Shown: piece after piece, positions 1 through 15,321 of the stretch
Layout: each line of letters begins with the position of its first letter
Numbering within the stretch: position 1 is the stretch's first letter
Assembly (NCBI GenBank): GCA_963766735.1
Contig: CAVYBU010000006.1
Location: 1-64,000, forward strand
Reading direction: 5' to 3'
Length of the DNA: 64,000 nucleotides
Source: an uncultured Chloroflexia bacterium
GTDB taxonomy: Bacteria > Chloroflexota > Limnocylindria > Limnocylindrales > CSP1-4
Position numbers and translations under genes: made by a program
Notes under the pieces: model-generated
What the model was told of the DNA's origin: nothing
Databases searched by the model: none
Seen by the model: only the letters and a program-made list of their open reading frames with translations

Positions 1-540
1 GGCAGTGGCCAAAGATACTTCATCTAATGCTTCCAAAGTGTATAAGACAAAGACCGGTAAAACGGATCATAATACGGAGACCCACCCATTCGGACAGAGC
101 CTTAGCACTATCAAGATTAGCACAGAAGGCTTCGAACACAATTATCTGGAAATATATGAGGACAGGGATCCCATTTCTGGTGTATTAATAGCCGACCTGG
201 ATAGTAACGGTTTTGATGAAATTTACATAATTACAACTTCAGCTGGCACTGGTAGTTATGGAACAGTATTTGGGCTTGCTTCAAATAAAGACAAAAGCCT
301 GTCAATGATTAATTTCCCTGAAATACAAGAAGGAGACAGGAATTTCGAAGGATATATGGGACACGATACTTTCAGAATAGAGGATCGAACGCTTGTTAGA
401 ATTTTTCCCATATATAAAAAGGGCGACATCAATCAAAATCCGACCGGCAGGAAACGCAAATTGATTTATGGTTTATATCCAGGAGAGTAGCGATGTGGCA
501 ACTAAATTTAGAGAAGTCAGAAACACTGAACAGCCCATAA
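1..540 (+). CDS. PliI-like (lysozyme-inhibitor-like) protein, 5'-partial, probable frameshift near 487
   Basis: ADLDSNGFDEIYI..SAGTGSYG motif resembles PliI-family SAGSGSY. An alternative frame continues (MWQLNLEKSETLNSP) to TAA at 540. Confidence 0.5.
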
Positions 541-608
541 GCTGGGAATAGAATGAGAATATGCCAGTCAATATAAATAATGTTTTTGGAATTGAATCCG
601 AAAACTCT

Positions 609-787
609 GTATCTGACAAACTAACAATTTGACGTCTGAATTTTTGAAGATAATGTAAACATCTATGCGAAATGAACCGAGTCTCAAAATGTGTGATATC
701 AGATTACGATATATGCATTTTTGCCAGAGTTGGGATTACATCTACATATCTGTAATTCGGGAGAATTTGTGATATTTTATGACATCA
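609..787 (+). repeat. Composite intergenic repeat, copy A
   Basis: GTATCTGACAAA...GATAATGTAAACATCTATG (TGTAAAC 654-660)...TTTTGCCAGAGTTGGGATTACATCTAC...TTGTGATATTTTATGACATCA. Confidence 0.9.
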
Positions 788-837
788 CACATGAATGAAT
801 CTGACCAAATGAATTATGCATTTAAAGGAACGTTTTC

Positions 838-2049
838 ATGAGGAAAAAATGCAAGACGTATATTGTATTAGTGATGTTTTTTTTTGGAACCGTTGGGCAG
901 ATCAAGGCAGAGGAAAACATCATGATAAAAAACATAGCTCGGGATAACACCTTGTTTGCTCTGGATCTTTACAACCAGTTGAAAATGACTGACGGCAACC
1001 TATTTTTCTCGCCGTTTAGTATTTTTACTGCGCTTGCCATGACCTGGGCTGGAGCCCGCGAAAACACTGCCGTTCAGATGGCCGAAACGCTGCATTTCAC
1101 CGAGAAACCCGCTCAGTTTCATCGCGCTATAGGAGATCTGATTTCACAACTTAATGCCGTTCAAAAAGAAACCGATGTTGAACTCAGCATTGCCAATGCG
1201 ATCTGGGCTCAGAAAGGCTACCAATTTCTGGATGAATTTTTCCGGATAGTTCAGCAATCTTATCAGGCTGATCTGAAGCAGGTTGATTTTTCAAGCGCCG
1301 CTGAATCAGCTCGTCAGGCAATCAATGCCTGGGTGGAGCAGCAAACCAATGAGAAGATCAAAGATTTATTGCCGCCCAAAGTGCTCAATGCGCTCACCCG
1401 TCTGGTTTTGGTGAACGCGATTTATTTCAAAGGATTCTGGGACAATCAGTTTAAATCCCGTGACACACGGGAAATGGAGTTTTGGCTGTTGACCGAGGTC
1501 GCCGTTAAGGTGCCGATGATGCACCAGGAACATCAATTCGGATACTGGGAAAATGACTGGTTGCAGATAATTGAGATGCCGTATAAAGAAGAGTCTCTGT
1601 CTTTAATCGTTTTACTTCCCAAAGAAAAGACCGGAATTACTGATTTGGAGCAAAAACTGAATTTTGAAAATATGATGGCCTGGCAAAGCCGGTTGCGAAA
1701 ACGAAAGGTTATTGTTTTCTTTCCAAAATTCAAGATCGAATCGCAATTTAGTTTAGGTCAGACCCTTGCCTTGATGGGCATGCCGGATGCCTTTGATCCC
1801 GAACTGGCTGATTTTTCAGCCATGGTGGGTCAGAAAGAACTGTATATTTCGGCGGTGATTCACAAAGCCTTTTTGGAAGTCAATGAGGAAGGCAGCGAAG
1901 CGGCGGCGGCCACCGGTGTGGTGGTTAGCGTGACCTCCATTGCGCCATCGCCACCGATATTCAAAGCCGACCATCCGTTTGTTTTCTTTATTCGGGACAA
2001 TAAGTCACAAAGCATTTTATTTCTCGGACGGGTGCTAAATCCGGCTTAA
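838..2049 (+). CDS. Serpin (serine protease inhibitor), secreted
   Basis: NLFFSPFSI, LVLVNAIYFKG, hinge EEGSEAAAAT, FKADHPFVFFI; N-terminal signal peptide. Confidence 0.95.
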   Translation: MRKKCKTYIVLVMFFFGTVGQIKAEENIMIKNIARDNTLFALDLYNQLKMTDGNLFFSPFSIFTALAMTWAGARENTAVQMAETLHFTEKPAQFHRAIGDLISQLNAVQKETDVELSIANAIWAQKGYQFLDEFFRIVQQSYQADLKQVDFSSAAESARQAINAWVEQQTNEKIKDLLPPKVLNALTRLVLVNAIYFKGFWDNQFKSRDTREMEFWLLTEVAVKVPMMHQEHQFGYWENDWLQIIEMPYKEESLSLIVLLPKEKTGITDLEQKLNFENMMAWQSRLRKRKVIVFFPKFKIESQFSLGQTLALMGMPDAFDPELADFSAMVGQKELYISAVIHKAFLEVNEEGSEAAAATGVVVSVTSIAPSPPIFKADHPFVFFIRDNKSQSILFLGRVLNPA

Positions 2050-2060
2050 TCGTTAGAGTA

Positions 2061-2182
2061 CAACGTTATCTCAGGGGCGGGAGGGTGAGTTGTGATTCCA
2101 TCTACATATCTGGAATTTAATGATTTTACATGTATTCTCAATCACCAGCCTAGTGATATTTGGTTTTTGCCATACGATATCA
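2061..2182 (+). repeat. Composite repeat, copy B (central module missing)
   Basis: CAACGTTATCTCA...GAGTTGTGATTCCATCTACATATCTG...CATGTATTCTCAA...GATATCA; shares flanking modules with copies C, D and E. Confidence 0.7.
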
Positions 2183-2208
2183 AGACCTGGCGGAATCCAC
2201 GTTAATGA

Positions 2209-2238
2209 TTGACAAAATCCCATCGATTTGGGTATAAA
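2209..2238 (+). promoter_or_regulatory. Sigma70-type promoter
   Basis: TTGACA-18 bp-TATAAA upstream of the cyclase gene. Confidence 0.55.
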
Positions 2239-2400
2239 TAAATGAATTTATACTATTTCTAATTTTCCTATTCCATCTGATCTGAAATAGTACTCAATTA
2301 GCGCAATAGAATCTGACTTCTCATCCGACTTTTGTGCTCTTCCAAATAATCCACATACTGAGTCCCTTTGTTTGAAACCTTGAGACAAGGGGGTGACACT

Positions 2401-4317
2401 ATGGCAGAAAAGGGTTTTAAACGTAAACTCACAGCTATCCTTAGCGCTGATGTTGTTGAATACAGCCGCATGATGCGAGATGATGAGGATGCCACCATCC
2501 GCACGCTGACAAATTATCGTTCTGCCATGTCAAATCTCATCCAAAAATTCCGTGGTCATGTAGTGGACACCATAGGCGATAATCTGTTGGCTGAATTTAC
2601 CAGTGTAGTGGATGCCGTAAATTGTGCAGTTGAGATTCAACGAGAGCTTGCCGAACGAAATGCCGAGTTTTCTGAGGAGCGGAAAATGAAGTTTCGAATC
2701 GGTGTCAATCTTGGTGATGTTGTTGAGGAAGAAGGTCGAATTTACGGAGATGGAGTGAATATCGCCGCTCGGATGGAGAGCTTGGCTGTGGCTGGAGGCA
2801 TTTGCATATCCGGAAGCGTGTATGACAGTGTGGAAAGCAGATTGGGATTGGAATATGAATTTTTGGGCGAACAGGAAGTCAAAAACATCGACAGGCCCGT
2901 CAGGACTTACAGGGTCCTGTCTTTTCCCGGTGCTGCAGCCCACCGGGTAGTTCAGGCCCGGGAGGTAGTTGGGAAAAAGTGGCGTATGTCGGCAATAACG
3001 GCTGGGGCTGTTTTAGTGCTGGTGGCTGCCGGGGCAATCATATGGAACAGTTACCTTCGACCTGTCTCTGTGGAAAAGGCTTCCATTGAAAAAATGGCCT
3101 ATCCCCTGCCCGATAAACCCTCGATCGCCGTGCTGCCATTTGTCAACATGAGTGGTGATCCTGAACAGGAATATTTTAGTGATGGTTTCACCGAAGATCT
3201 CATTACGACACTCTCAAAGATACCGGATCTGTTCATAATCTCCCGTCAATCAACCTTCACCTATAAAGGTAAACCGGTTAAGGTGAACAAGGTCGCCGAA
3301 GACCTTGGTGTCCGCTACGTATTGGAGGGCAGCATCCAGAAATCCGATGATAAAGTGAGAGTAACCGCCCAGCTTATTGACGCCGTCAAAGGCAATCATC
3401 TATGGAGTGAGCGTTACGATCGAGAACTAAAAGACCTTTTTGAGCTCAAAGAAGGCATCATTTTGAAAGTTGCAAATGAGTTATTGGTTGGGCTAGTAAC
3501 CGGAGAGTTTCTACGCCAAATAGTTGGTTATACGGACGATCCTGAGCCTTGGCAGACAAACAATCTTGAGGCATGGGAGACTTATTGGGTTGCACAAAAG
3601 TACGCAAGACGCTTCAGAAAAGAAGACAATGCACGAGCCCGCGATCTTTACACAAAGGCTTACCAACTCGATCCCAACTGGTATATCCCATTAGTGGCTA
3701 TAGGCTATACCCATAGGAATGACGCACGGCATGGTTGGAGCGAGTCGCGTAAAAAATCGTTTGATCTGGCCACTGAGATGGCCAATAAAGTGCTCGCCAT
3801 TAATGATGAATCCGCCTCAGCCTACGGTCTTCTCGGTGCGATCCACCTGATGAAAAGAGAATATGAAAAAGCGAATTACTATAATGAAAAAGCACTGAGC
3901 CTCGCTCCTAACTACTCCGAAGCTCATGCGGGAAGAGGATTTTTGCTAAACTATTTAGGAAAGCCTCAAGAAGCGATCATGCATTTCAAAATAGCCATGC
4001 GGCTCAGCCCTTTTTACCCCCCGTGGTACCTCTATCATCTGGGGTTATCATATCATCTGACCGGGCAATACGAGCAAGCAATCGAAACCCTAAAAAAAGG
4101 GATTGAGCGAACACCGGATGTTATATTTCCACACGTTAGACTGGCTGCAGTATACAGCGACCTTGGTCGCGAGCAAGAGGCTCGCGCTGAGGCGGAAGAA
4201 GTTCTCAGGATAAAGCCAGACTTCTCAGTAGAGAACTATGCAAGAGCCAACCCCTTTAAAGACACTGCCATTGTGGAATACAGAAAGGAGTTGCTGCACA
4301 ACGCCGGGCTTAAATGA
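2401..4317 (+). CDS. Class III adenylate/guanylate cyclase with TM, TolB-like and TPR domains
   Basis: RKLTAILSADVVEYS, FRIGVNLGDV, GDGVNIAARME, PSIAVLPFVNMSGDPEQEYFSDG, C-terminal TPRs. Confidence 0.93.
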   Translation: MAEKGFKRKLTAILSADVVEYSRMMRDDEDATIRTLTNYRSAMSNLIQKFRGHVVDTIGDNLLAEFTSVVDAVNCAVEIQRELAERNAEFSEERKMKFRIGVNLGDVVEEEGRIYGDGVNIAARMESLAVAGGICISGSVYDSVESRLGLEYEFLGEQEVKNIDRPVRTYRVLSFPGAAAHRVVQAREVVGKKWRMSAITAGAVLVLVAAGAIIWNSYLRPVSVEKASIEKMAYPLPDKPSIAVLPFVNMSGDPEQEYFSDGFTEDLITTLSKIPDLFIISRQSTFTYKGKPVKVNKVAEDLGVRYVLEGSIQKSDDKVRVTAQLIDAVKGNHLWSERYDRELKDLFELKEGIILKVANELLVGLVTGEFLRQIVGYTDDPEPWQTNNLEAWETYWVAQKYARRFRKEDNARARDLYTKAYQLDPNWYIPLVAIGYTHRNDARHGWSESRKKSFDLATEMANKVLAINDESASAYGLLGAIHLMKREYEKANYYNEKALSLAPNYSEAHAGRGFLLNYLGKPQEAIMHFKIAMRLSPFYPPWYLYHLGLSYHLTGQYEQAIETLKKGIERTPDVIFPHVRLAAVYSDLGREQEARAEAEEVLRIKPDFSVENYARANPFKDTAIVEYRKELLHNAGLK

Positions 4318-4420
4318 ATTGGCTTGTTTTTTCTAAGCATCGCAATCCTATTAAGAAACAAGTGCAGATTGCTTCTTCAATAACCAACTATCTTGGGTCT
4401 TCAATTTTTACGGATTTCTC

Positions 4421-4541
4421 CAACGTATCTGACAAATTTTGGACCTCTAAAAATGTCAGATAATGTAAACATCTATGAAAATTTGACCTGTATTTAGAAT
4501 TTGTGGTATCAGATGCATTTTTACCAAAGTTGGGGTTACAT
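4421..4541 (+). repeat. Composite repeat, copy C (ends just before the YR/IS91 element's flanking hairpin)
   Basis: TATCTGACAAATTTT..AAAAATGTCAGATA hairpin, ATGTAAACATCTATG...AGTTGGGGTTACAT. Confidence 0.9.
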
Positions 4542-4550
4542 AGAATAGCG

Positions 4551-4654
4551 TTTTATCAATCGTTGCGCTGACGCAAATAAGGCAACAATACCGGTGGCAT
4601 TTTAGTTTCAGATAAATGTGTAGATGAGTTAAGCCTCAGCAATGATTGATAAAA
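4551..4654. repeat. Long imperfect hairpin flanking the element's left end
   Basis: TTTTATCAATCGTTGCGCTGA ... TCAGCAATGATTGATAAAA; the loop contains GTAGATG (inverted CATCTAC). Confidence 0.75.
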
Positions 4655-4947
4655 TGGTGAACTGTACCGCGGCTGGGCGGCAGGATTCGACGAGTGTAGT
4701 CTATGGGGATTATATGGATGGCATCAAGTCAATAGTTTTCATCGAGGGCACTGATTTGAGCAGGGTGAATTTAATAAAATGAAAAATTTGACCTATCTGC
4801 GCCCCATTTGTTGTTTGAAAATTATGATAAGTCTGCAAAATCATATTTGTATACACATCGATGGCAGAAAGCGTGCGCAGCTGTACTGTCGTGCTTTAAC
4901 AGCAACTTTTTAATCTTAGAAAATAAGCATCAAGACAGATATAGTGG

Positions 4948-6155
4948 CTATGATGAATTCAAATCATTTTTTGGCAATTTTCTGATTGGTATCATTTTAC
5001 CCTTCTTGCATTTCGGACAGCAGCTAATGTCTATGCCGGTCAATCGGAGCATCATTTCGCTGATGCTCTCTTTAATTTTCTCCGGCAATGTTGCATCCGG
5101 ATCGATTAATTTTCTAATAAGCGGGATATCTTTTTTTTTGTTTGTGTGAGCTAAAAAGCCAAAGTATCGGATTTTGAAAAAGCCCTTTGGCAGGACATGA
5201 AGCAAAAATCGGCCGATGAACTTATCAGCATCAAGGGTCATTTCTTTGATTTCATTGTCTTTTTGACGATCCCGGTAGGTAAAAGTGACGCTGCCGTTAT
5301 CAATGGAGATGATCCGATTGTTAGATATGGCAACCCGGTGAGTGTAGCGGCCAAGATACTCAAGTACCTGCTGGGGACCTGCAAAAGGGCGCTTTGCATA
5401 GGCGATCCATCTTTTTTTTGAAACCGAGTTAATCAGCTGTTGGAATGCTTGCCTGGAGTTAAGGGCAGCAGTTTTTTGGGTAAAAATCAACTCGTCTTTT
5501 AAATAGGCGTTCAACAGCAGTTTGAGATAGCGTTTTCTAAACTCCTTAGCCAGAGAAGTGATTTTAAACAGAAAGTTATCTTTGGTCGGTATCCATTTGT
5601 CTTTGGTGAAGGAAAGAGCCCCTGCGGGAATCAGGCAGTGCAGATGGAAATGGTCGATAAGCGTCTGTGACCAAGTATGCAAAACGCTGATGAATCCGAG
5701 CCGGCCTTCAAGTCTCCACTGAGGATCTTTGGCAAAGGCTTGAAGGGTTTGATTGACAGCGGCAAACAAGATGTTCAGGGTCGTTCTTTTGTTGGATAAT
5801 ATAATGGGATTAAGGTCATGTGGCAGGGTGAATACCAGGTGGAAGTAACCGCAGGGGAGCAGTTCTGCTTTGCGGTCATTAAGCCATTGTTCCTTTGTCA
5901 TCGTTTGACATTTAGGGCAATGTCGATCCCGACATGAATTATAAGCATTTTGCTCAAATGCACATTGGTCGCATTGCTCAACATGACCGCCAAGCACAGC
6001 GGTTCGGCATATTTCAATATGGTGCATGACTTTTAACTGTTCATAGGACGCGCGTGTGATCGCCGGTAATCATCTGCGTAAAGGCGGAAAATATCGGCCA
6101 GTTCCACTTGTTCTTTGTTTTTGGGGGCCAGGGAATCATTGTGTGTTTTTTTCAT
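4948..6155 (-). CDS. IS91-family transposase (zinc-binding + Y2_Tnp), frameshift near 6050
   Basis: CRTAVLGGH..C..C..YNSCRDRHCPKCQ, HLVFTLP, HTW..HFHLH (HUH), YLGRY (YxxxY), IRYFG; the N-terminus ELADIFR lies in another frame. Confidence 0.92.
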
Positions 6156-6167
6156 TATTGCACCTCC

Positions 6168-7022
6168 TTACTCATCATCTTCATAAAGGGTATCCAGCGG
6201 GCTTTTGCACTGTTGGACCCGCTCGGGTATGAGGTGGAGGTAAATAATGGTGGATTTTAAAGAGGAGTGGCCCAAAAAACGCTTAAGGGTGTAAAGATCC
6301 ATTCCTTGGTAAAGTGAATGAGTAGCGAAGGTGTGCCTCAGACAATGGATACCGAGGCCCTTGGTTAGACCGGCTTTTTTTTTGCGAGGTAAAAAGCGGT
6401 TTGTGCCGCGCCTTCACACAGGTGGGTTTGAGGCTTTTGTCCGGCAAACAACCATTTGCCGGGACGATATTTACTCCAATAAGTTCTCAGATCCGTAAGC
6501 AGCCTTTTGGGAAAGAATTGTGTAACGATCCTTTTTGCCTTTGCCCTGATCGACGCGAATCATCATGCGGTCAGCATCACTTTCGATGTGCTTGGGCTTA
6601 AGGCGAACCAGTTCACTGACCCGCAGCCCTGAGCCATAAACGGTTTGCAACAACAGCCGGTGTTTAAGATTTTCAGCTGCAGCAAGCAATCGTTTTACTT
6701 CCGGTTGGCTAAAAACAACCGGCAGTTTTTTAACACGGGGCCGGGGCGGGATTTGAAACTCGGCATCGTCCCATTTACAAATATGCCTGTAAAAGCAGAC
6801 AATACCGGACAAATAAGAATTACAGGTGCCCCAGGACAATTTGCGTTCTTCAAGCAAATGGCGGATATAGTCCTGGATCTGGTCGTTGGTCAAGGTGTCG
6901 GGCGATTGCATGTAATATTTGGACAATAGCTTAACACCAGTTACGTAGCTTCTCTTTGTGTGATCGGAAAATCGTTGCAAGGTCATGTAGTTGAGAAATT
7001 GGGTTTTCAGTTCACTGGCCAT
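6168..7022 (-). CDS. Tyrosine recombinase (N-terminal SAM-like domain), frameshifts near 6505 and 6385
   Basis: GLRVSE, KGKKDR, then in shifted frames HCLRHTFATH, LGH, STIIY; full R-K-H-R-H-Y set present. Confidence 0.9.
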
Positions 7023-7178
7023 AATAATACCTCCTTGGTAAAAAGTTAATATAATAGGACGCTTTACCTGGAGATACTATAAAACAATATAGCTTGGATT
7101 AGGAGGTTAAAGTTGATCTGTCGATAAAATGAATTCGGTGGGTAAACATTCTCCGCGAAGCGGTTCAGTTCATCTTAC

Positions 7179-7208
7179 TAATCACAGGTTTGCTTATTTC
7201 TGTGATTA
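7179..7208. repeat. Hairpin flanking the element's right end
   Basis: TAATCACAG-12 nt-CTGTGATTA immediately after CAGTTCATCTTAC. Confidence 0.7.
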
Positions 7209-7247
7209 CATAATAATATCCAAAATTTTGATCAGTGTATCAGCTTG

Positions 7248-7344
7248 TGTAAACATAGTCAGTTCACTCATGATTTAAAAAGATCAATTGTTGAGCCTCT
7301 GCTCAGCGAAACGACCGCTCCAGCAGAGTTGTGCTGACGTTACA
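7248..7344 (+). repeat. Divergent repeat-like hairpin
   Basis: TGTAAACATAGTCAG...AGAGTTGTGCTGACGTTACA; same TGTAAACAT/GTTACA ends, different interior. Confidence 0.5.
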
Positions 7345-7443
7345 ATATTTCCTCCGGCCCGCGCTATACTTTGGGAAAATAGTATTGATCGGGATCTGAC
7401 TGAGTTTGTTTCATATCAATGCATAAATCGACAGAGGTGAATA

Positions 7444-8100
7444 ATGGAAAACCCGATTCAGAATTACCGGCAGATAAGGTTGGCACGTGTAAAAGAGTCA
7501 TTGGAGGGGAACAATTTCGAGGCATTTATCGCAGAAAATGTAGAAGAGGCAAAACAAATCATGAAGGAGGAGATTCTGCCCAAATTAAGAGATATAAAAA
7601 TCGTTTCTAGAGGAGATTCCTTGACATTTGAAGCTACAGGTATGCTGGAGGTAATTGAAAAAAACACGGCCTTTGACTTCTTGGATCCCTTTGAAAAGGG
7701 TCTCCCTGATGAAGAAATATACGAACGGGGTAGGCAGGCACTTCTGACGGATCTATTTTTTACAGGAACAAATGCTCTGACAGAGACGGGTATCCTTGTC
7801 AACCTCGATGGGTGGGGAAATCGGGTTGCGGGTCTTACCTATGGACCCAAATACGTGATCGTTACGGTTGGCCGGAATAAGATAGTCCCTGATTTGGATA
7901 GTGCAATGTATCGGATTAAAGATTATGCAGCTCCGGTCAATGCCATGCGGTTCAACACGAAGACACCCTGTGTAAAGACATCCTTTTGTGAGGATTGCAA
8001 GAGCCAAGATCGCATCTGCAGCACCTGGACCATCACGGAAAAATCTTTTCCAAAAGGCAGGATAAAGGTGATTTTAATCAACGAAGAATTAGGATTTTGA
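7444..8100 (+). CDS. LUD-domain (LutC/YkgG-like) protein
   Basis: GTNALTETGILVNLDGWGNRVA, GRNKIV, TPCVKTSFCEDCKS. Confidence 0.88.
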   Translation: MENPIQNYRQIRLARVKESLEGNNFEAFIAENVEEAKQIMKEEILPKLRDIKIVSRGDSLTFEATGMLEVIEKNTAFDFLDPFEKGLPDEEIYERGRQALLTDLFFTGTNALTETGILVNLDGWGNRVAGLTYGPKYVIVTVGRNKIVPDLDSAMYRIKDYAAPVNAMRFNTKTPCVKTSFCEDCKSQDRICSTWTITEKSFPKGRIKVILINEELGF

Positions 8101-8158
8101 ATATTTATTTATTGGGTGCCTCAACAGCCAATTCTCATTTATTATGGATATGTTATGC

Positions 8159-8452
8159 ATATCTGCAAAAGGTTCTGTCTTAAAAAATTACAGATATTGT
8201 AAACATCTATGTAGAATTGACCGACCTATAAAACTTGTGATATCAGATTACGGATAGCCATTTTTGCCAGAGTTGCTGTATCATCTACGTGTCTTTACTT
8301 TTACACTTTTCCATGTATTCTCAACATCTATGCAAATTTGACCGACCTTCACAAATTGTGATATTAGATTACGGTATATGCGTTTTTGCAAGAGTTGGGG
8401 TTACATCTACTACCTGCAAGTTTCAGGTAAGTTGTGATATATTATGATATCA
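8159..8452 (+). repeat. Composite repeat, tandem copies D1 (core 8198-8289) and D2 (core 8323-8410)
   Basis: Two AACATCTATG...AGAGTTG..CATCTAC units joined by a ...CATGTATTCTCAA module, ending TGATATATTATGATATCA. Confidence 0.9.
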
Positions 8453-8577
8453 ATAGTTTTATAGAAAATTAGAATTTCAAAAATATTGTACCAAATAGAA
8501 TCTATGATATTGAATAGTATAGATTCCACCTAATACATGTTAGCTGAACATCAACACAATAAAGGAGATCCAAGTTC

Positions 8578-10005
8578 ATGAAAACCACACTGTCGAAAAT
8601 TCTTCTGAGCACGATGCTTGTGTTCGCGTCCCTTCCTTCTATTTCCGCCCACGCGGACATTGACCTCACTTCAGCGGAAATTGAGGCCATCGCCGAGGAA
8701 GGCTTCATCTACGGTCTACCGATCGTGATGAACTATGGGGTGATGAACGAATACGCGATCAACCGCGATTCCGGCCAGTTCAAGGCCCCGTTCAACCACA
8801 TCAAGAACGAGGCACGCGTCTTCACCTACAAGGACACCGCGATCATCACACCGAACAGCGACACACCTTACTCGCTGCTGTGGCTCGACCTGCGGGCGGA
8901 GCCAATCGTCCTGTCCGTTCCCGCGGTGGACAAGAACCGTTACTACTCGGTGATGCTCGAGGACGGCAACACCTTCATTTACGGCTACATCGGGAGCCGC
9001 GCCACCGGTTCCGAAGCGGGCGACTATATGGTCGTCGGCCCGGGTTGGAAGGGCGAGGTCCCGGACGGGATCAAGAAGGTTTTCCACTCCTCCACCCAGT
9101 TCTCGCTGGTTGCCTACCGCACCCAGCTGTTCAATCCTGAAGACATGCCAAACGTGGTAAAAATTCAGTCCGGTTACGGAGTGAAACCGCTCTCCGAGTT
9201 CCTCGGCCAGCCGGCTCCCAGCCCCGCGCCGAAGATCGATTTCCCGAAGTTCGACAAGGAAATGGTGAAAACGAAGTTCTTCGATTACCTGGAGTTCTCG
9301 CTCCAGTTCGCGCCTGCCGGTCCGGAGGAAAAAGAAATTCGCGCGAAGCTCGCCAAGATCGGAGTTGGCCCGGACAAGACCTTCGACTTGGACGATCTCT
9401 CTCCAGAGCAAAAGAAAGCAGTGGCAGCAGGCATGAAGGCCGGTGAAGCCAAAATCGCAGAATACCTCAAGACGCAGCTGATCGAACTGAATGGCTGGGG
9501 CATCAGCAGCTATTTTGGGGATCGCGCGTTCTATAACGGCGATTGGCTGAAACGTGCCGCAGGCGCGCAAGCTGGAATCTATGGTAACGAGTCCATCGAA
9601 GCCGCCTATCCGATCGCCAAAACACTGGCTGACGGCTCGCCACTCGATGGAAGCAAGAGCAACTACACGATCACCTTCCCGGCCGATGGATTTCCGCCGG
9701 TGAACGCCTTCTGGTCGGTGACCATGTACGACGGCAAGACCCAGTTGCTGATCAAGAACCCGATCAACCGCTACCTGATCAATTCGCCGATGCTGCCGGA
9801 CATGAAGAAGAACGCCGATGGATCACTGACTCTTTACATCCAGAAGGACAGTCCCGGAGCCGAAAAAGAGAGCAACTGGCTCCCGGCCCCCGACGGCCCG
9901 ATCTACCTCGCGATGCGCCTCTACTGGCCGCGCACGGAGTCGCCAACGATCCTGCCGATCGGCAAGGGCGACTGGAAGCCACCGGTCATCGTGGAGGTTA
10001 AGTGA
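8578..10005 (+). CDS. DUF1254/DUF1214 secreted protein
   Basis: FIYGLPIV, TPNSDTPYS, FWSVTMYD, NWLPAP, MRLYWP; signal peptide. Confidence 0.92.
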   Translation: MKTTLSKILLSTMLVFASLPSISAHADIDLTSAEIEAIAEEGFIYGLPIVMNYGVMNEYAINRDSGQFKAPFNHIKNEARVFTYKDTAIITPNSDTPYSLLWLDLRAEPIVLSVPAVDKNRYYSVMLEDGNTFIYGYIGSRATGSEAGDYMVVGPGWKGEVPDGIKKVFHSSTQFSLVAYRTQLFNPEDMPNVVKIQSGYGVKPLSEFLGQPAPSPAPKIDFPKFDKEMVKTKFFDYLEFSLQFAPAGPEEKEIRAKLAKIGVGPDKTFDLDDLSPEQKKAVAAGMKAGEAKIAEYLKTQLIELNGWGISSYFGDRAFYNGDWLKRAAGAQAGIYGNESIEAAYPIAKTLADGSPLDGSKSNYTITFPADGFPPVNAFWSVTMYDGKTQLLIKNPINRYLINSPMLPDMKKNADGSLTLYIQKDSPGAEKESNWLPAPDGPIYLAMRLYWPRTESPTILPIGKGDWKPPVIVEVK

Positions 10006-10007
10006 CC

Positions 10008-10137
10008 AGCTAACAATGGGCTCCAAGGGACCGGCGGGCAGCGCGGTTTTTCGAGGTTCAGCCTTGCTGCCAAATTTGTAAGTCAATCAAAGCTCAGTGC
10101 TGCAAATCTCCGCCGGCCTCTGGGCTCAAGGTTACAT
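10008..10137 (+). other. attC site (130 bp)
   Basis: R'' AGCTAAC just after the stop codon; arms GGGCTCCAAGGGACCGGCGG / CCGCCGGCCTCTGGGCTC; R' G|TTACAT. Confidence 0.85.
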
Positions 10138-10148
10138 ATGTCTGCGTT

Positions 10149-10310
10149 GTATCTGTAAAAAATGGAAGCCCCAAAAGTGCATATACTGTAAACATCTATG
10201 TAGAATTGACCGACCTTTAAAAAATGTGATATCTGTATTTTTGCCGGGGTTGGGGTACCATCTACGTATATGTAGTTTGGCGATTTTGCATGTATTCAAT
10301 ATACATGCAA
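10149..10310 (+). repeat. Composite repeat, copy E
   Basis: GTATCTGTAAAA...ACTGTAAACATCTATG (10187)...GGTTGGGGTACCATCTAC...CATGTATTCAA. Confidence 0.88.
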
Positions 10311-10441
10311 TTTTGATGAATGTGATTTTATTTATTATATCGCAAGTTTGGAGAAAGTAGTGGTTTCATCTTTATCAGGGTATTAGGTTGATAAATAAAA
10401 ATCGATATAACAACTAATGCTAAACCTAAGGATATGAAATT

Positions 10442-10825
10442 ATGGAGCCTAAAGCCAATGACAAGAGAGTATCATCTTCTTCACCAAACCTGCCTCAGAA
10501 AGTGCGCAAAATTTTAATTGTTTACCTTATATCTGCTGTTATTGTTTTGGTTATCTGTTTCATTTTTGGATGGCGATCAATAGAAAATATTGGAACCGGA
10601 TTTATATATGGTTCCTTGAGTCTGGCACTTTTCGGCGCATTGCTCTTGGCAGGGAATACGGTTCCTGCTCAACTTTCTAAACTTTCACTCCCCTCTGTTA
10701 GACGCCATCAAGAAAACGAAAGCGATGGTTCTCCGTCTAAGGATGAAGGAAAAAGATTCTTTTTTACGACTTTAATATGTGGAGCATTTTTATTTGTGAC
10801 AGGACTTATTTTAAAATTATTGTGA
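10442..10825 (+). CDS. Small membrane protein (3 TM), unknown function
   Basis: 127-aa ORF with hydrophobic segments and an AAGGA RBS. Confidence 0.7.
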   Translation: MEPKANDKRVSSSSPNLPQKVRKILIVYLISAVIVLVICFIFGWRSIENIGTGFIYGSLSLALFGALLLAGNTVPAQLSKLSLPSVRRHQENESDGSPSKDEGKRFFFTTLICGAFLFVTGLILKLL

Positions 10826-10894
10826 TATTTGGCATATCTGTAAAATGGCCCAACTGCATCAATATATCACAACTTGAGTTAAAGGGGCTGAGAG

Positions 10895-11944
10895 ATGAAA
10901 ATAGTGAAAAGGATTCTTCAAGGTTTGGGCATCTTCATTGGAATAATTGTCCTTTATCTATCAATCGTGACCTTTTTCCCTGGCTTCAAGGTTCTGGAAC
11001 AACCTCTTGAACAACGTAAGCAATTAAAAAGTGATGTAGACTCAGAACTATCTTCAAAAAGAAAAAATGTGAGTTTTAAAGTCAAAGGGACGTCGATAAG
11101 TGCATGGTTGTATCTTCCAGATAATTTATCTGTTCCAGTTCCTTGTATCATTATGGGTCATGGATTTGGGGGTACGAAAGATATGGGTTTGGAATCTTAT
11201 GCTATTCGTTTTCTGGAAGCTGGCTTTGCGGTGCTCATTTTTGATTACCGACACTTTGGCGAAAGCGAGGGAGAACCTCGGCAGTTGATATGGATTCCTT
11301 ACCAGCTGGAAGATTGGTCATCGGCGATCACTTATGCACGAGGGCTTAAGCAGATTGATCCATCAAAAATTGCTCTCTGGGGGACCTCTTTGAGTGGTGG
11401 CCACGTGATTGCAACTGCTGCAAAAGACAATCAGATTGCTTGTGTAGTCGCACAATGTCCTGGACTGGATGGTCGGGCATCCGGAGAGATGTTTTTTGAT
11501 AGAGTAGGAATCGGATATCTGCTTCGTATGGCAATGCACGGACAACGTGACTACTTGAGGTCGTGGTTTGGACTTTCGCCTCATAAAATACCAATTGTCG
11601 GAAAACAAGGAAGTATTGCTTGTTTGACTACTCCAGATGCTTACGACCATTTCAGAAAATTTGCACCAGCCAATTATATTAACGAAGTCTGTGCTCGTAT
11701 CTTTATTCGGGGAGACAAATACAGGCCGGTCAAACAGGCCCAGAATGTGCGTTGCCCAGTTCTGCTTCAGATATGCGAAAATGACAGTATAATTCCCAAA
11801 AGTGCAGCAGAAGAAACTGAAAGGCAATTAGGGAAATACGCAGAAGCGATATACTATCCAATCGGCCACTTTGATATCTATATAGGGGCTAACTTCGAAA
11901 AGGCTGTAAAGGATCAGCTTTTGTTTTTTAAGAAGCACCTGTAA
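10895..11944 (+). CDS. Alpha/beta hydrolase
   Basis: HGFGG, FDYRHFGESEGEPRQ, nucleophile elbow GTSLSG, GHFDIY. Confidence 0.92.
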   Translation: MKIVKRILQGLGIFIGIIVLYLSIVTFFPGFKVLEQPLEQRKQLKSDVDSELSSKRKNVSFKVKGTSISAWLYLPDNLSVPVPCIIMGHGFGGTKDMGLESYAIRFLEAGFAVLIFDYRHFGESEGEPRQLIWIPYQLEDWSSAITYARGLKQIDPSKIALWGTSLSGGHVIATAAKDNQIACVVAQCPGLDGRASGEMFFDRVGIGYLLRMAMHGQRDYLRSWFGLSPHKIPIVGKQGSIACLTTPDAYDHFRKFAPANYINEVCARIFIRGDKYRPVKQAQNVRCPVLLQICENDSIIPKSAAEETERQLGKYAEAIYYPIGHFDIYIGANFEKAVKDQLLFFKKHL

Positions 11945-11960
11945 TATCTCCAACAAAAAA

Positions 11961-12083
11961 CAACTATCTGGCATCACTTAAAACTGCATATACTGTAAAC
12001 ATCTATGCAGAATTGATAGGGCTTTAAAACTTGTGAAACCAAATTACGATATTTGCAATTTCACAAGATTTGGGAGTACAGCT
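11961..12083 (+). repeat. Composite repeat, copy F (degenerate)
   Basis: CAACTATCTG...ACTGTAAACATCTATGCAGAATTGA (11994)...TTACGATAT...AGATTTGGGAGTACA. Confidence 0.8.
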
Positions 12084-12120
12084 GAAACAATGTTGATATG
12101 AATATCAGAGGTTCGATGAG

Positions 12121-12651
12121 ATGAAGTCTAAAATAGCAGAAACTCTGATAGCTTCACTTGGAACACTATTTTTCCTATTTTTGATAATTCCTTTCTTTTT
12201 GATCTGGATACCCCATAGAATCCTTTTATCGCCTGAATATATTTACCGTTTTGACATCGGTATATATCGGTATTTTGGGCTGTCTCCGATAGTACTCGGT
12301 GTTGTAATATACATTTTTTGTTCTGGTAGTTTCGTATTTGTTGGCAAAGGTACACCGATACCTTTTACGCCAACTAAAGAGTTAATAGTGACTGGATTAT
12401 ACAGATTTGTTAGAAATCCATTGTACATTGCTGGAGTTCTTGTTTTGGCAGGAGAAGCAATTCTATTTCAATCTTTAGGCATATTTCTTTATTGCTTGGT
12501 AATGTTTGGGGTTTTCAATGTCCATGTCATCATGGAGGAAACTTTATTAGCAGAAAAATTTGGTGCGAGATACGAACAATATTGCAAGTCTGTTCCTCGT
12601 TGGATTCCAAGATTAAAACCCTATAGTAAAAAAGATACAGAGTCCAAATAA
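12121..12651 (+). CDS. Isoprenylcysteine carboxyl methyltransferase/PEMT family membrane protein
   Basis: GKGTPIP, LIVTGLYRFVRNPLY, EETLLAEKFG..YEQY...VPRWIP. Confidence 0.9.
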   Translation: MKSKIAETLIASLGTLFFLFLIIPFFLIWIPHRILLSPEYIYRFDIGIYRYFGLSPIVLGVVIYIFCSGSFVFVGKGTPIPFTPTKELIVTGLYRFVRNPLYIAGVLVLAGEAILFQSLGIFLYCLVMFGVFNVHVIMEETLLAEKFGARYEQYCKSVPRWIPRLKPYSKKDTESK

Positions 12652-12712
12652 ACAAATCTGCGAAGTTTCCAACTTTTTTCAGGTGAGCCTAAATTGCAGA
12701 TATCCTGCTATG

Positions 12713-12886
12713 GTATCGGAAAAAAATTGCCCGCCCAAAAGTACTGATACTGTAAACATCTATGCAAAATTGACCGGTCTTTAGAATCTGTGATATCAGA
12801 TTACGATATATGCATTTTTGCAAGAGTTGGGGTTACATCTTACGTATCCAAAGTTTGAGGAAATTTGTGATATTTTATGGTATCAA
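12713..12886 (+). repeat. Composite repeat, copy G (near consensus)
   Basis: GATACTGTAAACATCTATGCAAAA (12751)...TTTTGCAAGAGTTGGGGTTACATCT...TGATATTTTATGGTATCA. Confidence 0.9.
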
Positions 12887-13029
12887 AGGTTTTGAAAGGC
12901 GTGATCCTCGTTATATTTTCTCAAACGAAGGTTGATTTAAACTGAGACAATGGTTTGTTATTTTCAATCCTGATGAGGTAAAGATAACCTTTTGATAAAA
13001 AGACCCTGTAATTTTGAAAGGAGGTTGAA

Positions 13030-13209
13030 ATGGCTACTATAATCGTTGAGAGTAAATGGCCTGCTGCAAGTTCCGAAAAGCTTGCTAAGACATGGTTGGA
13101 AATGGGTGATGTAGCAGAATCGCAGAAAATGATTTGGGCCGGCACTTTAGATGATATTAATTTAGTAAGGATACGCTCACGGGCAAGTGAAAATTGCGTT
13201 TATGGGTGA
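13030..13209 (+). pseudogene. Short ORF probably interrupted by the IS4-type element
   Basis: Strong RBS GGAGG and ATG at 13030 (MATIIVESKWP...); coding character is lost near 13150. Confidence 0.4.
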
Positions 13210-13297
13210 ACTTTTTACCGAATAAAAAGCCTCCTTGTGGTAAGAATTACAAGCGCCAACTAATAATTCTACACCAAAAGCAAGGAGGCTAGAGACG

Positions 13298-13810
13298 ATG
13301 ATACACCAAATTGGCAGGAAATTGCGACAGCAAATTCATTATTTTTCGGGTGAACTTTGTAAGGTATGGGAACCGTGGCTTCCCGCTTTGTTGAGGAGGC
13401 CGTTTTTGGCATATCTGCCAGCGGATCTGTTCGGTTGACTGAAATCGGTCGGGCTTTAGAGGAAAAAATTCCGCTTCATGCGACCCACAAGCGTTTGAGT
13501 CGTAATTTGGCAGATCAAAGCCTTGAAGATAACCTGGGGAGCAACGTTCTCAAGTTGGGCTCAAAACGTATAAACGAAAATACGCTACTGATCGTTGACC
13601 CATCTGATGTTAAAAAAAAATACGCCAAGAAAATGCAATATCTAGCCGATGTGCGTGATGGCAGCGAGGATACAATCGGAAAGGGATACTGGTTATGCGA
13701 AATCGTTGGCTGTGAAGTCGGATCAAATGAGATTACACCGCTGGCACAAGAACTATGGTCGCAGGATGCGCCTGATTTTAAGAGCGATAACGATCAAATC
13801 CTTTACCTTG
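13298..13810 (+). mobile_element. IS4-type DDE transposase, N-terminal fragment truncated at the junction
   Basis: SVRLTEIGRAL, KRLSRNL, LIVDPSDVKKKYAKKMQYL..VRDGS..GYW; frameshift near 13365. Confidence 0.8.
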
Positions 13811-15321
13811 GCCGGGCCGGTGCAGCAGGTACCCCTGGCCCGCGTCAAAGCCCATCTCGATGACGGCCAGGAGCTGGTCGGGTGTCTCGATGCCCTCGGC
13901 GACGGTCGTCTGGCTGCGTCGCTGGGCAAGCTCGCGAAGCGCGCGCAGCACGGCCTGGGAAGACTCATCCCGGACCCCGGCCTGGACCAGCGAGAGGTCG
14001 ATCTTCATGATGTCGAACTCGAGCTCCCGCAACAGCCGGAGGCCGGCGTTGCCGGCGCCCACGTCGTCGGCCGCGATCCGCATGCCGTGCCCCCGAAGCA
14101 GCGTGATGGCCTGGCGGAGCCGGTCGAGATCCTCGACGGCCTCGCGCTCGGTCAGCTCCAGGACGATCCGGGCGGGGTCGAACCCGCGTTGGCGGACGAG
14201 CGCGAGGAACTCCTGGGGCTGGAAGGCATCTGCCTCGAGAGACCGCGGCGAGAGGTTGACCGACAGGTAGAGGTTCGCGCCCATCGTCCGCGCTCCGGTC
14301 AGGACGGTGTCGAGGCTGGCCAGGTCAAGCTCCACGGTGTGATCCGTCGACTCGGCCGCGATGAACAGGGCGCTCGCATTGGCGAACCCGGCGTCCGCAT
14401 TCGGGCGAACCAGGCCCTCGTAGCCCAGGACGCGTCCCGTCCGCAGGCAATGGATCGGCTGGTACACGGGCGTGAGGAGGCGGTCTGCCGAGACGCGGGC
14501 CACGGCGGCTGCCAGCTCCGGCAGAGACCGTCCGTCATCCACGATTCCGTGCCGGGTCGGGTCGAAGAGCTGGACGTCGGTGCGGCCGTGGCGCTTCCCC
14601 CAGTAGAGCGCGGCACCCGCCTGGTGGACCAGCTGCTTGAGATCCCTGGCCAGCTCGGGCATGGCCGAGACACCGATGGTCAGCGAGAACGGGGCGACGC
14701 CAAGCGTCCCGGAGCCACCGCTCAGTGCGCTCGCCAGGATCCGTCGCGCGGTGCCGACGGCCTCATCCGGCCCCCCGTCCGGCAGCACGATCGCGAAGTC
14801 GTCACCGCCGATCCGGAACCCACGTTCCGATCCGCGGAGGGTGCCCAGGATGATCCGGGCCGTGGCCCGGAGGATGTCGTCGCCAGCGGCCTGACCCTGG
14901 GCCTCGTTGATCTGCTTCAGGTCGTCCACGTCCAGGTACAGGAGCGCGATCGAGCCTGACTCGGCACGGGCCGATGTCACCTGGCGACCGAGCTCCTCCT
15001 GGAAGGCCCGGTGGTTGCCAAGGCCGGTCAGCCCGTCGCTCAGCGCATCCAGGCGGGCACGATCGTAGGCGTCCTTGAGCCCATCCTGCTCGTTGTCGAG
15101 ACTCGCCACCTGGCCCAGGATCCGCCGCAGGGCCAGCCCGGACAGGACGCTGAACGCGATCACGATGGACAGCCAGAGGAGCGAGCGCCCAGCGGAGCTC
15201 GGGGTTCAGTCTGCCACGCGATCAGCAGGGTCGCAGCGACCCACAGCGCGGCGCATGCAACGAACCAGCGCACCAGGCTCGTGCGAATCGTCCGCGCCAT
15301 CGGGGTCGCGGGAGTCTTCAT
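13810..15321 (-). CDS. Membrane GGDEF/EAL protein, 3' end truncated at the junction, frameshift near 15160
   Basis: DGLTGLGNHRAF, GGDDF, YEGLVR, LELTE, DDVGAG, KID, AEGIET, QGYL. Confidence 0.9.

Follow-up and report, generated by a model that had tools for sequence, protein, structure and literature searches.

Among the bacterial systems in which single genes are stored as mobile cassettes, integrons alone are well understood. The first 13.8 kb of a 64,000-nucleotide stretch of DNA assigned to an uncultured Chloroflexia bacterium (contig CAVYBU010000006.1 of assembly GCA_963766735.1, positions 1 to 64,000 of the forward strand; hereinafter, the window) raise the question whether genes can be stockpiled by other means. 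In this region, unrelated genes lie between co-oriented copies of a long composite repeat, and an earlier interpretation made from the letters alone (hereinafter, the sequence-only reading) took this arrangement for a candidate gene-capture system that is neither a classical integron nor CRISPR. Comparison with related genomes and metagenomes leads us to favor, with confidence and doubt about evenly balanced, the interpretation that the array consists of gene cassettes moved by a recombinase at the composite repeat. This interpretation fits best because each unit holds one gene, the units are strictly co-oriented, half-sites are exact and the core of the site is a dyad around an invariant spacer, and further because a unit is common to different genomes and a candidate recombinase is found in the arrays repeatedly and has the arm word of the site upstream of its gene.

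Anatomy of the Composite Repeat

Alignment of 38 extended copies yields a composite repeat of ~290 nt (about 250-300 bp) in which the modules follow one another in the order U, A, S1 (TGTAAAC), B, S2 (CATCTAC), and C, with alternative versions of each of A, B, and C. Module A is an inverted pair, GTATCTG...CAGATAC, the arms of which are 23 nt apart in 95 of 153 copies, whereas module B is 85 nt long or, in its short form, 13 letters shorter. The S1 spacer reads TGTAAAC in 153 of 157 distinct copies and is the center of a dyad with 10-letter arms (YTGCAGATAY and its inverse) around the seven-letter word, as in GTACAGATAC TGTAAAC GTATCTGTAA. The 10-mers that flank S1 are complementary at 5.45 of 10 positions, compared with 2.54 in a shifted control, and complementarity at 8 or more of the 10 positions was found in 14 of 157 copies and in none of the control. 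Such a 10-7-10 layout is that of simple tyrosine-recombinase sites, and the repeat resembles the core of these sites, in architecture alone, both in its dyad and in the location of breakpoints at the spacer. Three spacers in the repeat (TGTAAAC, AGATTAC, and CATCTAC) are of like build, each consisting of seven letters that end in AC and are followed by RTATCTG.

It is at these spacers that copies part from one another. After S1, 88 of 165 copies continue into B, 27 into an RTATCTG module, and 50 into other sequence, so that B is at times cleanly absent. Homology between repeats stops at the 3′ edge of the spacer, 21 of 109 partial matches ending at model positions 89-99, which correspond to S1. 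Copies of B with 5′ truncations recur from B position 39-47, directly past AGATTAC, and in seven cases the high-identity segments common to different loci end at S1 or S2 or at most 15 letters away. Runs of repeats start with B-C, in which B is often truncated, and finish with A-TGTAAAC followed by unrelated DNA.

Several other interpretations of the repeat were considered, of which structural selection on the A hairpin and a long-range hairpin were rejected. Structural selection on the A hairpin is not apparent in the form of covariation: the arms pair at 6.29 of 8 positions, compared with 6.24 when arms are swapped between copies, and no strand is favored, since G-T (52) and A-C (54) mismatches are equally frequent. 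A long-range hairpin found no backing either, with 0 consensus pairs in 43 repeat copies according to RNAalifold and with all eight single-strand DNA folds of the repeat no better than those of shuffled sequences (z from -1.44 to +0.91). B and the reversed C have a common word of ~22 nt, and the resulting B-C palindrome folds with a z of -4.7 in one copy from a closed relative (G001, see below) and of -1.2 in a copy from the window. A promoter in the repeat is not indicated by a sigma-70 scan, in which one of the seven window copies was flagged, with no gain over shuffles. Of the traits of miniature inverted-repeat transposable elements, clear termini and target-site duplications were sought around the repeat and were not found.

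Copies of the Repeat in the Window

A hidden Markov model (HMM) built from the copies in the window locates (with nhmmer) seven repeats within positions 608-12893, all on the + strand (E from 2e-34 to 7e-51), where the sequence-only reading had placed them and in the single orientation that it had described; repeat finding on the window returned families of 6, 4, 3, and 7 copies, again in one orientation. The core word TGTAAACATCTATG begins at 654, 4464, 8198, 10187, 11994, and 12751, and at 8323 it is represented by the variant TCTCAACATCTATG. Copy 1 (608..794; E 2e-44) comprises A, S1 (TGTAAAC, 654-660), B, S2 (CATCTAC, 739-745), and C. Copy 2 (4420..4541; HMM match 4420-4591, E 2e-34) comprises A, S1 (4464-4470), and B and is interrupted within S2, being broken after GGGGTTACAT by an insertion sequence (see below). 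Copies 3 (8157-8320; E 3e-40; S1 at 8198-8204, end of S2 at 8288) and 4 (8298-8464; E 3e-41; end of S2 at 8410) directly adjoin each other, filling 8157..8464 with zero genes between them. The short form of B is found in copy 5 (10145..10318; E 3e-40; S1 at 10187-10193, end of S2 at 10265); copy 6 (11960..12137; E 6e-38; S1 at 11994-12000) shows the greatest divergence; and copy 7 (12710..12893; E 7e-51; S1 at 12751-12757, end of S2 at 12843) is the best match to the family.

Partial copies had been suspected near 2061, 7248, and ~10835, and each of these places does hold a piece of the repeat, the first two on the + strand. The first piece (2087..2141) consists of the final 19 letters of B with S2 (end at 2105), followed by a C2-type module. 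In the second (7169..7256), the remainder of the S2 that is interrupted in copy 2 (ATCTTAC) is followed by a stretch resembling C and by TGTAAACAT, an S1-like end, with no gene inside. The third is an A-like fragment (10826..10894) between the genes for a membrane protein and an alpha/beta hydrolase.

Single-Gene Units in Related Genomes and Metagenomes

The supposition that the repeats act as boundaries of single-gene units is borne out beyond the window. The 114 gaps between repeats in 165 loci have a median length of 1.5 kb; the longest open reading frame (ORF) is co-oriented with the repeat in 100 of 111 gaps, opposed in 10, and absent in 1; and exactly one ORF of at least 80 aa is present in 80 of 110 gaps. 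The breakpoints of the units likewise fall at fixed seven-letter spacers, and one unit of the window recurs in another genome, namely the serpin unit (746-2105), the cargo of which is a serpin gene (838..2049, + strand; Pfam Serpin, E 1e-130). Window positions 694-2142 are 98% identical to a segment of contig C105 of the related genome G003, and this near-identity, 1.37 kb in length, starts at the CATCTAC upstream of the gene and stops directly past the downstream CATCTAC; the flanking modules and the neighboring genes differ between the two loci. Similarly, a gene for a 299-aa protein is common to three genomes at 98%, and its contexts part near the repeat.

The cargo of the units is diverse. 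In a Pfam census, 135 cargo proteins fall into 129 families, headed by Guanylate_cyc with TPR (13 proteins), the beta-lactamase fold (9), SpoIIE (4), alpha/beta hydrolases (4), and PEMT (4), and there are no recombinase families among the 25 commonest. At the edges of the arrays in five loci, neither recombinases nor transposases were found, and Pfam shows ordinary genes.

In G001, a closed relative with a 7 Mb chromosome that was searched with a sequence-only model (150 of 2886 candidates scored), at least 104 repeat matches, 55 on the + strand and 49 on the - strand, form 60 clusters, 26 of which contain 2-5 copies. Orientation is uniform in 22 of these 26 clusters, and some of the remaining four are mixed through echo matches on the opposite strand. 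The sequence-only reading had named dispersal over the genome in both orientations beside syntenic housekeeping genes as the pattern that would speak against gene capture; the first half of this pattern is observed, the repeat being present at 60 or more loci and on both strands of G001, yet locally it is co-oriented with the genes. The same holds in metagenomes, where at least 120 contigs carry the repeat pattern and the modules were recognized in 77 of the 80 contigs examined, co-oriented in 76 of the 77. Across the order, the repeat was found in 5 of 151 sampled genomes, with 17 candidates scored per genome, a census in which negatives are weak.

A Candidate Recombinase Associated with the Arrays

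Which enzyme could act on these sites? Two copies of a gene for a 278-aa recombinase, 94% identical to each other, lie beside repeats in G001 (L054 and L087). The protein contains the Pfam Phage_integrase and SAM-like domains and, among NCBIfam models, is nearest to those of the Xer type, scoring below every curated cut-off. At L054, the recombinase gene and a small EF-hand ORF lie between the two members of an inverted pair of the S2 word, which is perfect over 12 nt. Among 120 metagenome loci (0.49 Mb) that were fetched by the repeat pattern alone, four encode homologues with at least 50% identity, compared with 0.21 expected (P = 7e-5), and locus L047, part of the array of G003 in which the serpin unit lies, encodes another homologue.

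The recombinase gene is antisense to the repeat modules in all seven loci compared, and the unit common to the loci is 1.07-1.15 kb long. Its left end is the reversed S2 word in three loci and abuts module C in L151; the reversed S1 is located 100-190 nt past the recombinase stop codon in four loci. The arm word CAGATAY precedes the recombinase start codon by 77-79 nt in 7 of 13 loci, three of which belong to G080, where no arrays were seen. Among the 151 genomes of the order, 33 encode this family, including 4 of the 5 genomes with the repeat vs. 29 of the 146 without it (hypergeometric p ~0.008); no arrays were found beside the recombinase homologues in four loci from genomes lacking the repeat. 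Judged by these associations, the 278-aa Xer-like enzyme appears to be a better candidate for the engine of the arrays than the recombinase/HUH pair embedded in the window, to which the sequence-only reading had tentatively assigned this role.

Gene Cassettes or a Passive Repeat?

Under the favored cassette interpretation, each unit packages a single gene, with modules B and C of the composite repeat at its start and modules U and A at its end, neighboring units meeting at S1. The words S1, AGATTAC, and S2 would serve as core sites at which a tyrosine recombinase of a simple, Xer/Cre-like kind acts on double-stranded DNA. By recombining two direct sites, this enzyme would release a circle made up of one gene and one composite site, and the same reaction would insert the circle at any other copy of the site. 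One would then expect many loci to hold co-oriented arrays, the arrays to end in half-sites, and one unit to turn up in different neighborhoods. The likely enzyme, the 278-aa Xer-like recombinase, itself a ~1.1 kb antisense unit between such sites in related arrays, would act in trans on the units of the window. The anatomy, the breakpoints, the unit common to two genomes, and the association of the recombinase with the arrays are observed here, and from them we infer that the recombinase binds and cuts the sites and that circles form.

The more specific proposal, that an integron-independent cassette system exists in which a small Xer-like recombinase, itself a cassette, moves single genes with ~250 bp composite sites at 10-7-10 cores, and that this system has given the chromosomes of sediment Desulfobacterales their small arrays, dozens on each, and has led to the exchange of units between species, is put forward tentatively, our doubts somewhat exceeding our confidence. 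If it is true, platforms for gene cassettes would have evolved more than once, with a different recombinase and with core sites in double-stranded DNA; part of the flexible gene pool of abundant sulfate-reducing bacteria in sediments would be explained; and a compact pair of recombinase and site would be open to direct testing.

Several observations weigh against the cassette interpretation. With respect to the sites, S2 is a poor dyad with only one good arm, the 5′ truncation points of B vary, which is unexpected for a clean site-specific reaction, and most of the breakpoints could arise from homologous exchange within the best-conserved words. With respect to the enzyme, no member of the 278-aa recombinase family is encoded in the window, and the recombinase gene has no fixed place in the arrays, lying after S1 in some and before C or before A in others. 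No families of direct repeats were found near the recombinase unit in two loci of G080 and one of G001, and a single 120-nt tandem pair is the sole direct repeat at the recombinase locus of G023. Given its presence in genomes in which no arrays were found, the unit may be a small, autonomous mobile element that only uses the repeats as targets, like the insertion sequence described below. Finally, only two or three units common to different genomes were found, and 34 of the 60 clusters in G001 are single matches, which would equally suit a dispersed intergenic repeat.

This last point leads to the main alternative, which we consider rather unlikely, namely that the repeat is a passive, mosaic intergenic element comparable to repetitive extragenic palindromes (REP), bacterial interspersed mosaic elements (BIME), or BOX elements, which spreads and decays and is possibly a protein-binding, terminator, or insulator element. 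The arrays would then be flexible regions dense in the repeat, in which genes are shuffled by homologous exchange between copies, and the recombinase unit and the IS91-type insertion sequence would be parasites that prefer the repeat as a landing site. Like these elements, the repeat is extragenic and modular, contains inverted-repeat words, is dispersed on both strands over at least 60 loci of the 7 Mb chromosome of G001, and exists in alternative modules and in many partial and rearranged copies. The presence of two unrelated mobile elements in it and the occurrence of the recombinase unit in genomes without visible arrays also agree with a passive role, as do the A arms, which lack covariation and would fit protein-binding words or recent copies. 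What this alternative leaves unexplained are the single gene per interval, the strict co-orientation of the repeat with the flanking genes, the delimitation of single genes in runs with exact half-elements ending in TGTAAAC at the array ends, the dyad around an invariant seven-letter spacer, and the 1.37 kb serpin unit, 98% identical in another genome and bounded by the same word on both sides. Moreover, the repeat is far longer than REP units and forms no stable palindrome: its copies fold no better than shuffles, and the A arms lie 23 nt apart without covariation. REP units are palindromes of 20-40 nt associated with a RAYT (Y1) transposase, and of the 19 Y1_Tnp loci in G001 only one or two are near the present repeat.

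The Insertion Sequence in Copy 2

The element that interrupts copy 2 occupies 4542..7168 on the - strand, is 86% identical to its counterpart in G001, and combines matches to Pfam Y2_Tnp, Zn_Tnp_IS91, and Phage_integrase. It encodes a Y2 HUH transposase (4948-6027, - strand; Y2_Tnp 2e-57, Zn_Tnp_IS91 9e-26) and, upstream, a tyrosine recombinase (Phage_integrase), the gene of which is broken or frameshifted (6471-7022 and 6028-6470, - strand). Both genes run against the claim that all cargo is encoded on the + strand. The combination of a Y2 HUH transposase with an N-terminal zinc-binding domain, together with the recurrence elsewhere of the ends of the element (AGAATAGCG... and ...GCGGTTCAGTTC), assigns it to the IS91 family, some members of which carry an accessory tyrosine recombinase gene. 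The element resembles IS91/ISCR elements with such a gene in all these respects; it sits in one repeat copy and is not the frame of the array.

In the window, the element splits S2 of copy 2, so that it is flanked by GGGGTTACAT and, across the element, by ATCTTAC. Insertion after CAT, within repeats or next to them, is seen not only here but also at two loci of G001 (L049, G001:5617207-5620017, and L085, G001:3481878-3483690). Both the window and one of the G001 copies have the recombinase gene in split form, and another copy has it intact (345 aa). A derivative of ~400 bp, composed of the two ends of the element, is present twice in G003 (L047:7519-7883 and L050:14311-14675). All three Y2_Tnp loci in G001 are located within 4 kb of repeats; the element thus favors repeat sites. 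The Y2_Tnp family, however, is found in 64 of the 151 genomes of the order, 60 of them among the 146 that have no repeat, vs. the 5 genomes in which the repeat was found, and the ends of the element are unlike the ends of the units. This distribution and the unlike ends led us to reject the embedded pair as the engine; the element is a separate insertion sequence that landed in a repeat, a guest rather than the engine.

The same evidence bears on the possibility that genes are captured by rolling-circle transposition, such that an IS91/ISCR- or IS200-like HUH enzyme nicks after the AC of the spacer, the A inverted repeat with TGTAAAC being the fixed end and the other end varying. Capture of this kind would account for units that end exactly at TGTAAAC while the 5′ truncations of B vary, and it would fit the presence of a 477 bp piece of a gene from another locus at the edge of an array, the proximity of all three Y2_Tnp loci of G001 to repeats, and the occurrence of a Y1_Tnp gene beside one of them. 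Nevertheless, it seems improbable given that no sequence is common to the ends of the IS91-type element and those of the units, that Y2_Tnp is widespread in genomes without the repeat, that the single-strand folds are no better than shuffles (z -1.4 to +0.9), and that only one or two of the 19 Y1_Tnp loci in G001 are near repeats.

The 477 bp piece, which has no Pfam match, is duplicated at 98% identity within G001 (L051:1954-2571 and L099:4317-4793, both loci being partly N-masked) and abuts the first repeat of the array with the joint ...GCCAAC|ATCTATG, and has the appearance of flanking DNA that traveled with an array. The Y1_Tnp matches, 19 in G001 and 15 in G003, are mostly ORFs of 320-350 aa, longer than those of the IS200 type, and generally do not lie near repeats.

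Relationship to Integrons and Xer-Dependent Elements

The arrays resemble integrons and attC clusters without an integron integrase (CALIN) in that mostly single-gene, co-oriented units with unrelated accessory cargo lie between repeated sites, arrays exist without an adjacent integrase, and the recombinase gene is antisense to the cassettes. In particular, the spacing typical of CALIN is present (two or more sites that share a strand and are separated by genes and by less than 4 kb), a feature that by itself is not specific to attC. The repeat differs from attC in lacking the R″/R′ boxes and a conserved hairpin and in being ~250-300 bp long, modular, and highly conserved. Furthermore, the 278-aa candidate enzyme scores 44-55 bits against the integron integrase model, the cut-off of which is 265; there are dozens of small arrays per chromosome instead of a single attI platform; and the units have leaders of 100-200 nt.

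Could the arrays nevertheless be ordinary integron arrays or CALIN with unusual attC sites that are used by the IntI of the host? We regard this as very improbable. PMC4889954 gives the R and L boxes and the folded single-strand hairpin as the defining features, and describes CALIN far from intI as common. The co-oriented single-gene arrays, the cargo, which is like that of chromosomal integrons, and the presence in both G001 and G002 of an IntI that exceeds the TIGR02249 cut-off are all compatible with this possibility, as is the location of many CALIN at a distance from intI (PMC4889954). Yet, within positions 1-13810 of the window, both strands combined contain 0 complementary RYYYAAC...GTTRRRY pairs (50-160 nt apart), compared with a mean of 1.19 in 200 shuffles, and, as noted above, the repeat copies have no consensus pairs and fold like shuffles. 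A search of 60 kb and 40 kb surrounding the IntI genes of G001 and G002 found no copy of the repeat (E up to 1), and Pfam detects no IntI in the window. The unit boundary falls at CATCTAC, 16 letters beyond the sole GTT candidate, and a scan of window positions 1-14000 against Rfam (the content of which was not checked for an attC model) gave no match with E up to 1. On these grounds, the claim of the sequence-only reading that the repeats are not attC sites is supported.

Near the intI gene of G002, ~20 kb away from it, there are four tandem units of 1.1-1.4 kb that are 60-73% alike and unrelated to the repeat (L045:8149-12815). Full-text literature searches returned no published account of the repeat or, for these bacteria, of a cassette system other than integrons.

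A further parallel is offered by pdif modules and other Xer-dependent elements. In Acinetobacter plasmids, the pdif sites are copies of dif, 28 bp long, that alternate in orientation; as in the arrays described here, genes are bounded by short dyad sites for a tyrosine recombinase of the Xer type, and the modules are shuffled between replicons. The sites in the arrays are different in that they are all direct, have a seven-letter spacer, are embedded in a long composite repeat, and are chromosomal. A dif-like reading of TGTAAAC was rejected: this XerD-arm word is common to the repeat and a putative dif, and the full 28-letter site, with its 11-6-11 layout, is not; the best ungapped match to dif in the window has 19 of 28 letters, compared with maxima of 16 to 19 in 20 shuffles. 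The putative dif itself, ...GTCTGATAA GATATA TTATGTAAACT (26-28 nt), is identical in G001 (C1:912490-912510; L232) and G002 (C1:2862926-2862946; L233), and this common site with unrelated flanks is probably the chromosomal dif.

Origin of the Low-GC Block

The entire array is located in a low-GC block (1..13806) with a GC content of ~35-58% per kb and about 42% overall, whereas the remainder of the window has 64-75% GC, a contrast that the sequence-only reading had missed. The host genome consists of 3.6 Mb in 35 contigs, each of 68-72% GC (with 64-75% given as the GC range), and contains no other stretch below 52% GC. The transition between the two parts is abrupt (13806..13810), and a GGDEF-EAL gene on the high-GC side (13778-15163, - strand) is fused at its 3′ end to the low-GC block; position 1 of the window is the end of the contig. 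Public contigs from three runs of three studies (X1, X4, and X6) match the window from 13810 onward and have different high-GC letters before this point. None of the listed public contigs aligned on window positions 12700-14900 bridges the junction at 13806-13810, and no public run contains half of the words of this segment; in this comparison, stretches left uncovered carry no evidential weight.

The block shows 98% identity in its match to G003 and 86% to G001, genomes that were reached via records of Desulfobacterales or delta proteobacterium metagenome-assembled genomes (MAGs). The repeat pattern is present in 35 records, 26 of which are titled Desulfobacterales or delta proteobacterium MAGs; the other nine are titled as other phyla or classes, and eight of these match the repeat HMM. 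Given the abrupt switch in GC content, the lack of any other low-GC stretch, the lack of a bridging contig, and the location at the end of the contig, the 13.8 kb block is most likely a mis-joined piece of a chromosome of the Desulfobacterales type and not part of the host genome, the junction being most likely an assembly chimera. The practical lesson is that repeat-rich arrays of this kind are prone to be mis-binned and mis-joined, in this case to a contig of 70% GC.

Cargo Genes of the Window

By Pfam, the cargo of the window comprises seven distinct kinds of genes, in agreement with the claim that it is functionally unrelated. In addition to the serpin gene, these are, all on the + strand, genes for an adenylate cyclase with TPR repeats (2368..4317), which represents the commonest cargo family in the units, a LUD-domain protein (7444..8100; Pfam LUD_dom, E 2e-45), a DUF1254/DUF1214 protein (8578..10005), a small membrane protein (10442-10825), an alpha/beta hydrolase (10895-11944), and a PEMT/ICMT-type methyltransferase (12121..12651). 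The DUF1254/DUF1214 gene is unlike its neighbors in base composition, and its 58% GC within a block of ~42% GC suggests that this unit comes from yet another source. The notion that at least one of the genes has its own promoter is not backed by a scan for sigma-70-like sites, which yielded 29 sites, compared with 27.7 +/- 6.2 in shuffles.

The genes for adenylate cyclases with TPR repeats make up a large family of paralogues; G001 has at least 20 nucleotide-level matches, many of them beside repeats. A leader of ~190 nt upstream of the start codon is conserved in these genes, at 2177-2367 in the window and at many loci in G001-G006.

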